Source of the DNA: Nostoc sp. ChiVER01
Lineage (GTDB): Bacteria; Cyanobacteriota; Cyanobacteriia; Cyanobacteriales; Nostocaceae
DNA: 32,000 nt
Reading direction: 5' to 3'
Assembly (NCBI RefSeq): GCF_034531155.1
Contig: NZ_JAVRBS010000017.1
Location: 37,004 to 69,003 of the forward strand
Part shown: piece by piece, positions 9,026-10,413 of the stretch
Position numbering within the stretch: position 1 is the stretch's first letter
How the letters are laid out: each line of letters opens with the position of its first letter
Notes under the pieces: generated by a model
The model's input: the letters and a program-made list of their open reading frames with translations, nothing else
The model's database searches: none
What the model was told of the DNA's origin: nothing
Translations under genes and position numbers: made by a program

Positions 9026-9259
9026 ATGGAAAATCTAAACCTAGAAAATTTGGATAACGAACTAATTAGTTTTGATTTAAGTCCAGAAGACATGGAGGCA
9101 ATTAAAGGTGGTACAAGCGTGCCAGTAGATACATCGAGTAGTAGTAAGTGTCCATCCCCTCCGAAGCACCCTTTTGGAATTCTAATAGTTGCAGTACCAC
9201 CCAAGCACCCTTTTGGAATTCTAATAGTTGCAGTACCATCCAAATCCAAAGACGACTAA
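9026..9259 (+). CDS. Double-glycine-leader peptide (bacteriocin/RiPP-type precursor) with a duplicated core
   Basis: 77 aa. The leader MENLNLENLDNELISFDLSPEDMEAIKGG fits the LSxxELxxIxGG consensus of double-glycine leaders. The core is TSVPVDTSSSSKCPSP[PKHPFGILIVAVP]x2SKSKDD. A plausible SD and promoter lie upstream. Confidence 0.7.
   Translation: MENLNLENLDNELISFDLSPEDMEAIKGGTSVPVDTSSSSKCPSPPKHPFGILIVAVPPKHPFGILIVAVPSKSKDD
9164..9238. repeat. Perfect 36-nt direct duplication (period 39 nt) inside the precursor core
   Basis: aagcacccttttggaattctaatagttgcagtacca occurs at 9164-9199 and again at 9203-9238. This encodes two copies of PKHPFGILIVAVP. Confidence 0.95.
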
Positions 9260-9392
9260 TCATTAAATTAAAAAATTAAGTTTAAGAGGATGAATGAACA
9301 AGTCTAATTTATTACTACCCCTGGTGACTATAAATCCCGGCTACATGAGACTTTATTCACCTCTGTGGGTTTAAAACCCTTAATTTTTATTA

Positions 9393-9474
9393 GTTTGCGT
9401 AGAGAGAAGTCTGAGCGCCGACTTCCGGCGTTCAGAACTTTAAAGCTGACTTGTCTGCTCCCCACTACGCGAAC
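9393..9474. repeat. Palindromic MITE-like intergenic element
   Basis: Outer arms are GTTTGCGTAG (9393-9402) / CTACGCGAAC (9465-9474). Inner arms are AGAGAGAAGTC / GACTTGTCTGCT and CGCCG..CGGCG. It resembles the small dispersed palindromic repeats of Nostocales genomes. Confidence 0.45.
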
Positions 9475-9582
9475 GTTTGTGTAATAGCGAATTAAATTCG
9501 CCCAAGACTCTTCAAATATCCTTTAAGGTTTGTATTTACACTTATGCTTTAAGAGCTATGTGCTGCTAATAATTATCCAATC

Positions 9583-10413
9583 ATGGGTAGTAATTATACT
9601 AAATATAGTTTTTTTAAGATAAAATATATGAACAATGTTAGTGAATTGGCGCTCAATTATTTACAACGTTATAACTGCCAAATTCTTGAAGATTATCAAA
9701 GTGTTTTAAGACAGGCTTGTGAAATTCATCCACCACCACACGGTATGGCATGGTACGGTAATTCCTATCGTCAGTTTGCTCGTAATGCTGAGTGGTTCTC
9801 TAATTCCCTGGTTACTAACGTCGTTGAAGAAGGAACTGGTTCTAAACAAGTTTGGCAATTCTCTGAGCAGATCAAAAATCAGGAGTTTGCCCAGTTGGTG
9901 AGAAATCACTCGATTGATGAGTCACGACACTCACTAATGTTTGTAGCACTGTTGAATATTATTTTTCCGACGAAAATAGAAGCAGATTTCCGCACACAGT
10001 TGAAAGCTTTTTCTCCGCAATACTATCACCACAAGCATCCGCCTCTAGTACCTATTTCTTCAGCTAAAATAATGGATGATTTGTTGGTGATGGATGAGAT
10101 TATCCAAATCAATCTCTTAGAAATTCGGGCATTGATCCTACAATTATTGTTGCGTCCAGTACTGCAAGCATATTCTACACCTAAGGATTTAGCAAAAGTA
10201 ACTCGAATGTCTGATTTGTTGATTTTCGATGAAACTAAGCATATTGAGTACTCTGGTTACTGTATTGGTAAGTACATGGAGCAAGGTCATGGCTCTTGGG
10301 TGCGGGAAATGATGATTTACCGTCAAAAAACTGTTAATGAAATGTTTTTAGAAGATATAGAATTAGCAGATTCTGTTGGCACTACTATTTTACGGACACA
10401 AGATCGCTCGTAA
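9583..10413 (+). CDS. Ferritin-like diiron oxygenase family protein (AurF-like pattern)
   Basis: 276 aa. The carboxylate/His ligand pattern is E (VVEEGTG) ... DESRH (ExxH) ... E (LLEIRAL) ... DETKH (ExxH), typical of four-helix-bundle diiron enzymes. An alternative start is at MNNVS (9628). Confidence 0.6.
   Translation: MGSNYTKYSFFKIKYMNNVSELALNYLQRYNCQILEDYQSVLRQACEIHPPPHGMAWYGNSYRQFARNAEWFSNSLVTNVVEEGTGSKQVWQFSEQIKNQEFAQLVRNHSIDESRHSLMFVALLNIIFPTKIEADFRTQLKAFSPQYYHHKHPPLVPISSAKIMDDLLVMDEIIQINLLEIRALILQLLLRPVLQAYSTPKDLAKVTRMSDLLIFDETKHIEYSGYCIGKYMEQGHGSWVREMMIYRQKTVNEMFLEDIELADSVGTTILRTQDRS

Follow-up and report, generated by a model that had tools for sequence, protein, structure and literature searches.

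Here we describe two neighbouring genes in a stretch of 32,000 nucleotides (nt) from Nostoc sp. ChiVER01 (contig NZ_JAVRBS010000017.1, positions 37,004 to 69,003; hereafter the window, with positions counted from its first letter). The upstream gene (9026-9259) encodes a small precursor peptide and the downstream gene (9628-10413) a ferritin-like, diiron-type enzyme. Because the pairing of both genes, the leader shared by the precursors, the pattern of selection and a conserved set of metal ligands all point in the same direction, we consider it likely that the two genes form a module for a ribosomally made peptide that is modified after its translation (RiPP). An earlier note on this DNA had proposed a minimal, uncharacterised module of the RiPP or bacteriocin type that relies on a transporter encoded elsewhere, and this proposal is strongly supported by comparative genomics.

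Using a profile of the enzyme we collected 80 loci from contigs representing one genome per species (81 loci including the window). A precursor can be recognised in 75 of the 77 loci that have at least 230 nt of upstream DNA; it is encoded by a small open reading frame (ORF) directly upstream of the enzyme gene and on the same strand. Such pairs occur in cyanobacteria, myxobacteria, proteobacteria, acidobacteria and other groups, so the pairs that the earlier note had suggested seeking in other genomes are found, and in several phyla. With a regular expression for double-glycine (GG) leaders, a small co-oriented upstream ORF is detected in Nostoc, Brasilonema, Scytonema, Calothrix, Microseira, Richelia, Stigonema, Rhizonema and Iningainema, and also in three myxobacterial genomes. 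We then built a hidden Markov model (HMM) from 13 leaders and used it to search every one of the 18,315 six-frame segments that the 81 loci contain (884 kb, the whole window included). It matches at E < 1e-9 in 38 loci, all of these matches lying 35-812 nt upstream of the enzyme gene and co-oriented with it, and just 2 of the 68 reported matches are not located upstream of an enzyme gene.

More distant enzymes (30-40% identity) occur in Sorangium, Moorena, alpha- and beta-proteobacteria, Acidobacteriota, Rokubacteria and Actinobacteria. A jackhmmer search starting from the upstream ORF of Sorangium recovered 25 more-distant loci, with every match again upstream, and inspection of motifs added another 13 loci (nine whose core is one C-terminal FVA[LVK]NAPF motif and four that carry PGAFTIRNHSFN repeats). 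The precursors have a leader block I-[ST]-F-[DEK]-L in common, even where the remaining leader differs. Outside Nostoc the two genes are separated by 32-156 nt in most loci. The pair is the only element common to all loci; the gene order BON, RNase D-like, TPR, pair, ActP, DUF485 is specific to Nostoc, and other genera lack these flanking genes. The window has the look of DNA from a filamentous cyanobacterium. Closest homologues of both module genes are from Nostoc, for which the members are largely derived from metagenome-assembled genomes. Since an ORF with a homologous leader directly precedes the enzyme gene in nearly all informative loci, these comparisons strongly support a functional link between peptide and enzyme.

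The precursor gene is made up of the following parts.

9014-9017, + strand: candidate ribosome-binding site GAGG, 8 nt 5' of the peptide ATG (read from the sequence)
9026-9112, + strand: leader M1-G29, ending in AIKGG (double-glycine cleavage motif) and containing the family-wide I-S-F-D-L block (homologue comparison, leader HMM)
9113-9259, + strand: core T30-D77 plus stop, with a Ser/Thr-rich stretch, Cys42, two units of 13 amino acids (aa) and the charged tail SKSKDD (sequence, homologues)
9161-9199, + strand: core unit 1, PKHPFGILIVAVP (sequence, Tandem Repeats Finder)
9200-9238, + strand: core unit 2, PKHPFGILIVAVP, one synonymous base apart from unit 1 (sequence, Tandem Repeats Finder)

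As read from the sequence, the ORF at 9026-9259 (+ strand) specifies 77 aa, namely the leader MENLNLENLDNELISFDLSPEDMEAIKGG, then TSVPVDTSSSSKCPSP, two copies of PKHPFGILIVAVP and SKSKDD; at the predicted cleavage junction MENLNLENLDNELISFDLSPEDMEAIKGG is followed by TSVPVD. In the leader residues L18-S-P-E-D-M-E-A-I-K-G-G29 the hydrophobic I, M and L stand at positions -4, -7 and -12, respectively, with acidic residues at -8/-9, which fits the double-glycine leader consensus published in PMC3140520. The GG leader reported previously for this ORF is hereby confirmed. Of the expression signals reported with it, a possible Shine-Dalgarno sequence is present (GAGG, 9014-9017), whereas the promoter is not recovered: a consensus scan finds no sigma-70-like promoter on the + strand upstream of 9026. 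Comparison of the precursor with Pfam and NCBIfam yields no family at E ≤ 0.01. The best matches below cut-off are TIGR03893 (E 0.025; 14.9 bits, cut-off 32.95) and TIGR04149 (E 0.09), and PF16934 is seen at E 0.24 (11.6 bits, cut-off 27.6). Membership of a curated GG-leader family, for which a search of TIGRFAM and Pfam had been suggested, is therefore not found, as no model of this type is reached.

The core is hydrophobic, with alternating Ile and Val. Its single Cys, Cys42 (codon 9149-9151), lies in a K/N-C-P-S-P context before the repeats and is nearly invariant in the Nostoc precursors; an equivalent is missing in most precursors of other genera. This residue is possibly a second modification or attachment site.

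Between the two core units 36 nt are identical (9164-9199 and 9203-9238), and Tandem Repeats Finder reports a period of 39 nt with 2.1 copies and 97% matches (9164-9243). The core make-up given in the earlier note (a Ser/Thr-rich stretch with Cys, two units and a charged tail) and the 36-nt identity both stand, but the duplication that was read as very recent does not. Among 5.8 billion clustered proteins we found 15 homologous peptides, and all those with a source name are from Nostoc; nearly all of the 15 contain two PK-x-PF-x-I-x-IVAVP units and 3 contain three. As all Nostoc homologues carry two or three units, the comparison indicates that this architecture is old and that the copy number moves between two and three. 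In 13 Nostoc loci of the genome collection the paired units differ by 0-10 positions per 36 nt. Nearly all of these differences fall into three codons (H/R/P, G/T/P/A/I and L/R/T/I); the scaffold codons are nearly identical, synonymous sites included. One of these loci (L007) has 0 differences between its units, independently of the window. We read the near-identity of the two units in the window (and, independently, of those in L007) as the outcome of recent homogenisation, or of turnover of the units through unequal exchange. Instead of a fresh duplication we see an array whose units stay similar over time and in which variation is concentrated in three codons of each unit.

Selection was estimated with the Nei-Gojobori method over 14 Nostoc orthologues. 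Nonsynonymous (dN) and synonymous (dS) divergence amount to 0.040 and 0.151 for the leader, to 0.024 and 0.158 for the enzyme, and to 0.160 and 0.091 for the first core unit (12 codons only, which makes the latter ratio a rough one). Leader and enzyme are thus under purifying selection and the core is fast-changing. RiPP and bacteriocin precursors usually show this combination of a constrained leader with a rapidly changing core.

The enzyme gene was listed as an ORF at 9583-10413. In Nostoc relatives the position of ATG 9583 is occupied by AAG or AAC, the sequence around and up to ATG 9628 is conserved, and homologues measure 250-265 aa. For these reasons we place the start at ATG 9628 as the most likely one according to the alignments, with ATG 9583 as an unlikely alternative. 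The start used in the earlier note consequently lies 45 nt too far upstream, whereas the ligand set that it recognised is upheld by the homologues. Residues are numbered from ATG 9628 in the features below.

9628-10413, + strand: ferritin-like diiron-type enzyme gene, 261 aa (homologue lengths, conservation, ligand motifs, AlphaFold2 model)
9829-9831, + strand: codon of E68, first carboxylate ligand candidate (conserved; helix 54-79 of the model)
9907-9930, + strand: HxxDExxH motif H94-S-I-D97-E98-S-R-H101 (conserved; helix 85-112)
10120-10122, + strand: codon of E165, third ligand helix (conserved; helix 151-182)
10228-10242, + strand: DExxH motif D201-E202-T-K-H205 (conserved; helix 188-245)

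Among 1.84 billion representatives, 305 clusters (at 50% identity) match the enzyme profile, and for 232 of these clusters the match has E ≤ 1e-10. Residues E68, H94, D97, E98, H101, E165, D201, E202 and H205 are, among others, invariant in 30 homologues aligned over their full length. When 101 full-length representatives are considered, 14 positions are at least 85% conserved, comprising these nine residues of the ligand set together with P36, W56, F113, P114 and N162; conservation of E68, E98xxH101, E165 and E202xxH205 is 89-95%. In the AlphaFold2 model, which is all-helical (predicted local distance difference test score 87.5, predicted template modelling score 0.87), the candidate ligands are positioned on four long helices, and the additional conserved His (H94) lies one helical turn before the first ExxH.

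Known families resemble the enzyme at a distance. Its best Pfam match is the small chain of ribonucleotide reductase (PF00268, 17 bits, below the cut-off of 33.6), NCBIfam gives no match, and a distant homologue matches AurF (PF11583) at E 0.07. When the peptide and the enzyme were scanned against Pfam and NCBIfam, along with two distant enzymes and precursors of three distant types, no cut-off was reached. Among solved structures the best match in a profile search is R2lox (7qbk, E 4e-4, over one ExxH helix), with R2 also weakly matched. A single family member exceeds a Pfam cut-off: the fused homologue P0175 just passes the rubrerythrin model PF02915 (23.8 against a cut-off of 22.8). Taking alignments and model together, the enzyme is probably a metal-dependent, diiron protein from a remote and unclassified ferritin-like branch. 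A PqqD-like RiPP recognition element, which is typical though not obligatory, has no domain match in the enzyme or its neighbours. Fused family members (database proteins P0175, P0196, P0217 and P0219) are about 500 aa long and carry the diiron-type domain at their C-terminus; their N-terminal 240 aa have no match to a Pfam family, and the context of these fused proteins might reveal a partner function.

Across the family the cores are hypervariable and almost always tandemly repeated. In addition to the Nostoc units, the following types were found.

FPIRI/YPIKI-type units: other cyanobacteria
GGFAIRNHALNL: 2-3 copies
[VIT]ACN[AS][AP]F heptads: 2-6 copies
AY[DE][AP]CNA: 4-9 copies
KAQNAPF: distant branches
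PGAFTIRNHSFN: 3 copies, some of these precursors having an N-terminus of the twin-arginine translocation (Tat)-like type RRxFV

Precursors of the distant branches come from loci L038-L080 (for example L039:5516-5752, L040:5674-5928, L057:2154-2477, L076:5710-5976 and L049:5325-5795). As we read them, the core types may all fit one loose register, F-x-[I/A]-x-[N/I]-x-[A/P]-hydrophobic. In other clades extra genes are located beside the pair: GNAT plus methyltransferase, IucA/IucC-FhuF plus an adenylate-cyclase/AAA/TPR regulator, or a JmjC hydroxylase. The combination of Cys-Asn heptads with siderophore-type genes hints at metal-binding products.

From the sequences we infer the following course of events. 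The 77-aa precursor would be translated in the cytoplasm, and its I-S-F-D-L block would dock on the 261-aa ferritin-like enzyme, which is predicted to hold a dinuclear site, presumably of iron, by means of three His and four carboxylates. Using O2, the enzyme might then oxidise the same position in each tandem unit PK-x-PF-x-I-x-IVAVP. The modified peptide would subsequently be cut after Gly29 and exported by an unlinked ABC transporter with a C39 peptidase domain. As for the type of reaction, hydroxylation or desaturation of an aliphatic Ile/Val side chain is our preferred candidate. It is followed by cross-linking of the conserved aromatic residue to a downstream aliphatic carbon (compare R2lox) and, in third place, by N-oxygenation (from the HxxxExxH spacing, compare AurF/CmlI). 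Both comparisons serve as leads only: R2lox forms a Tyr-Val ether link within its own chain, and the conserved His four residues before the first ExxH presumably resembles the third His of AurF/CmlI. Known ferritin-like members act on small molecules, on carrier-bound acyl chains or on their own side chains, and are not known to act on ribosomal peptides that bear a leader.

Several observations weigh against such a RiPP module. Behind the label 'ferritin-like diiron' stand a pattern of ligands, an all-helical model and similarities that are weak, and a Foldseek search of the model against the PDB finds no match below E 0.14 (the top of the list, at E ≥ 0.14 and TM scores of 0.38-0.60, contains rubrerythrin-like proteins, bacterioferritin and the haem-oxygenase-like diiron proteins UndA and AetD). 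The modified position cannot be named, because the core types do not all have even one residue strictly in common. A reductase partner is not encoded in the module. In the window the genes lie 368 nt apart, and this spacer carries a terminator-like hairpin as well as a large stem-loop, so that co-transcription is not assured. Furthermore, there is a gap with respect to exporter and peptidase: as stated before and confirmed here, the 32-kb window contains no C39 exporter, lanthipeptide synthetase (LanM) or cyclodehydratase, and neither does it contain another ABC exporter or a radical SAM enzyme. A true C39-peptidase ABC exporter within 6 kb is seen in just one of the 81 loci (L057); a cluster of 'C39-ABC' neighbours in 8 loci was rejected, as it consists of generic ABC ATPase domains with the exception of L057. 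Nostoc genomes typically carry many C39 ABC exporters (PMC3140520).

Given the absence of any known tailoring enzyme from the window, it might be argued that the GG-motif peptide is secreted unmodified, either as a bacteriocin of the class II type or as a matrix- or amyloid-forming peptide resembling EbfG, and that the metalloprotein has another linked role such as immunity, sensing or iron handling. The hydrophobic core with its alternating Ile and Val is in line with this explanation, as I-x-I-x suits beta-strands, and small secreted proteins with a GG motif are reported to drive biofilm formation in Synechococcus (PMC4997328). Nonetheless, the pairing persists across phyla in which leaders are long and of a non-GG type and classical tailoring genes have been added, the conserved positions of the partner correspond to a catalytic-type metal site instead of a membrane or immunity feature, and I-S-F-D-L is conserved far beyond the needs of export by a GG transporter. 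An unmodified product is therefore unlikely in our view. The tandem identical units allow for a different explanation, since they would increase the yield per precursor if the peptide were a sacrificial scaffold from which the enzyme and unlinked helpers release each repeat as an excised small product (a cofactor, metallophore or signal), the final product then not being a peptide antibiotic. Excision from a scaffold peptide takes place in the pathways of pyrroloquinoline quinone (PQQ), mycofactocin and the pearlin type. In distant clades siderophore-type genes (IucA/IucC-FhuF, GNAT) adjoin the pair and the Cys-Asn-rich heptads resemble metal-binding sites. Yet in Nostoc no protease or excision enzyme is linked to the pair, the units lack flanking recognition sequences, and a GG leader suggests that the core is exported as a whole; altogether we regard a scaffold as quite improbable. 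That both genes are unrelated neighbours, the small ORF perhaps not even being expressed, would agree with the long spacer and its terminator-like hairpin in the window. Such chance adjacency is hardly credible and can be excluded because of the comparative data: the pair is co-oriented in 75 of 77 informative loci within otherwise unrelated contexts, and the leader is under purifying selection.

Coming back to the enzymatically modified peptide, we lean towards the broader view that the family represents the first RiPP class defined by a ferritin-like diiron oxidase (three His, four carboxylates). The I-S-F-D-L block would be recognised without a PqqD-like domain, and each tandem unit would be modified by a chemistry that has not been described. 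This class would comprise about 300 clusters from at least six phyla, with sub-classes characterised by PK.PF.I.IVAV, FPIRI, GAFTIRNH and ACNAPF. Our literature searches (full text, including few subscription journals) returned no ferritin-like enzyme paired with a ribosomal precursor and no description of a core motif; the nearest themes were DUF692/MNIO enzymes, CylC halogenases and general bacteriocin mining.

When compared to known systems, the precursor is most readily placed beside the GG-leader peptides of C39 exporters, such as class II bacteriocins, class II lanthipeptides and cyanobacterial GG peptides (Wang et al. 2011, PMC3140520). It shares with them a leader of about 29 aa ending in I-x-G-G, the hydrophobic residues at -4/-7/-12, acidic residues at -8/-9, a short core and the lack of a Sec signal. 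Unlike these peptides, it reaches no curated model, has no linked exporter and contains an extra N-terminal I-S-F-D-L block, which is shared with non-GG relatives. Tandem core units are also present in the multi-core PatE precursors of cyanobactins and in triceptide and spliceotide precursors, where motifs of 3 residues are repeated; the copy number varies between strains (two or three here). In comparison to cyanobactins, however, no proteases of the PatA/PatG type are encoded in the window and the units abut without recognition sequences, whereas the difference to triceptides and spliceotides is that the module has no radical SAM enzyme.

For the enzyme, the nearest functional analogues by comparison seem to be the multinuclear non-haem iron-dependent oxidative (MNIO, DUF692) enzymes. 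Known examples in RiPP pathways are MbnBC of methanobactin, TglHI, ChrHI and the bufferin enzymes. In those pathways the gene of an O2-dependent non-haem iron enzyme adjoins that of a small precursor, and the enzyme oxidises particular residues that often belong to repeated motifs, much as is proposed for the module in the window. The MNIO fold, however, is a TIM barrel as opposed to the helical bundle predicted here, a partner like MbnC or TglI is found only in the MNIO systems, and DUF692 does not match the enzyme even at E ≤ 10. The ligand set E/(D)ExxH/E/(D)ExxH, placed on four long helices in the predicted model, is what the enzyme has in common with the ferritin-like diiron group (R2, R2lox, AurF/CmlI, acyl-ACP desaturases, rubrerythrin). 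Cyanobacterial dimetal-carboxylate halogenases of the CylC type are likened to the enzyme by their ligand set.

New RiPP classes have repeatedly yielded new enzyme chemistry and bioactive scaffolds. If our reading is true, the defining enzyme would originate from a superfamily (R2, desaturases, N-oxygenases, halogenases) that is known so far for the chemistry of small molecules, lipids and protein radicals. What would then be new is an enzyme family so far foreign to the logic of RiPP pathways, in a module that is small, widespread and absent from the curated libraries searched. With two genes and about 1.4 kb this module can be tested directly by co-expression, and the natural series of repeat types combined with enzymes of 30-95% identity offers a ready map of substrate specificity. 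Secreted peptides of the Nostoc members may moreover matter for interactions.

Three structural elements are located in and behind the module.

9367-9389, + strand: terminator-like hairpin GGGTTTAAAACCC with a T-run behind it, roughly 110 nt beyond the stop codon of the peptide gene (conserved among Nostoc spacers)
9393-9474, + strand: long imperfect hairpin in the spacer (fold -37.9 kcal/mol, z = -4.7)
10458-10481, + strand: terminator-like hairpin with T-run, between the enzyme gene and a convergent acetate-symporter gene (terminator scan)

The spacer between the two genes exists as described before, but its size of about 320 bp has to be corrected to the 368 nt obtained with ATG 9628. Nostoc spacers range from 197 to 675 nt and differ by insertions and deletions in blocks. 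By analogy with many bacteriocin operons, the hairpin at 9367-9389 is possibly a partial terminator that raises the ratio of peptide to enzyme transcript. The element at 9393-9474 had been called a palindromic MITE-like element (miniature inverted-repeat transposable element). The hairpin itself is real (see its z-score), while a MITE or other dispersed repeat is unproven: the element occurs once in the window, in four relatives it is found only at the orthologous site, and metagenome contigs contain no exact match. It is missing in L010, replaced in L011 and has an inverted loop in L014, and from this comparison we regard it as an insertion that is present or absent among strains and lies outside the functional unit. 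The flipped loop concerns window positions 9409-9436 and L014:5784-5807, where GGAAGT is found for GACTTC with the stem retained; this looks like a flip of the centre of the palindrome. The hairpin at 10458-10481 marks the end of the module.

The remainder of the window encodes SMC, a DUF433 protein, a BON-domain protein, an RNase D-like exonuclease, a TPR lipoprotein, an ActP-type symporter with DUF485 (convergent), an M50-like peptidase, parts of lysyl-phosphatidylglycerol synthase, esterases, an NB-ARC/TPR protein and a CCA-adding enzyme. Rfam returned nothing for the whole window. We rejected the TPR lipoprotein gene (7652-8494) as a part of the module, since it is syntenic within Nostoc only. 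This gene contains a 102-nt tandem repeat at 8042-8416 (3.7 copies, 71% matches), which corresponds to its TPR units.

In two Nostocales/Stigonema genomes, precursors with a Nif11 leader and repeated QPLYGVI are encoded beside the module (L027:5267-5605, L029:5248-5604 and 9507-9839), together with a radical SAM/SPASM gene (L029:6731-8134). Judged by these genes the neighbourhood looks like an adjoining spliceotide-like cluster.

Two further repeats were observed in the window. At 26212-26496, following the NB-ARC/TPR gene (22071-26081), non-coding tandem repeats are nested with periods of 21, 42 and 63 nt (CAAAAGCAGCTTTTA...). At 3645-3676 the heptamer TGGGGAG is repeated 4.6 times within the 5' end of the SMC ORF (384-4019, - strand), and the true start of SMC may be located downstream of this repeat.

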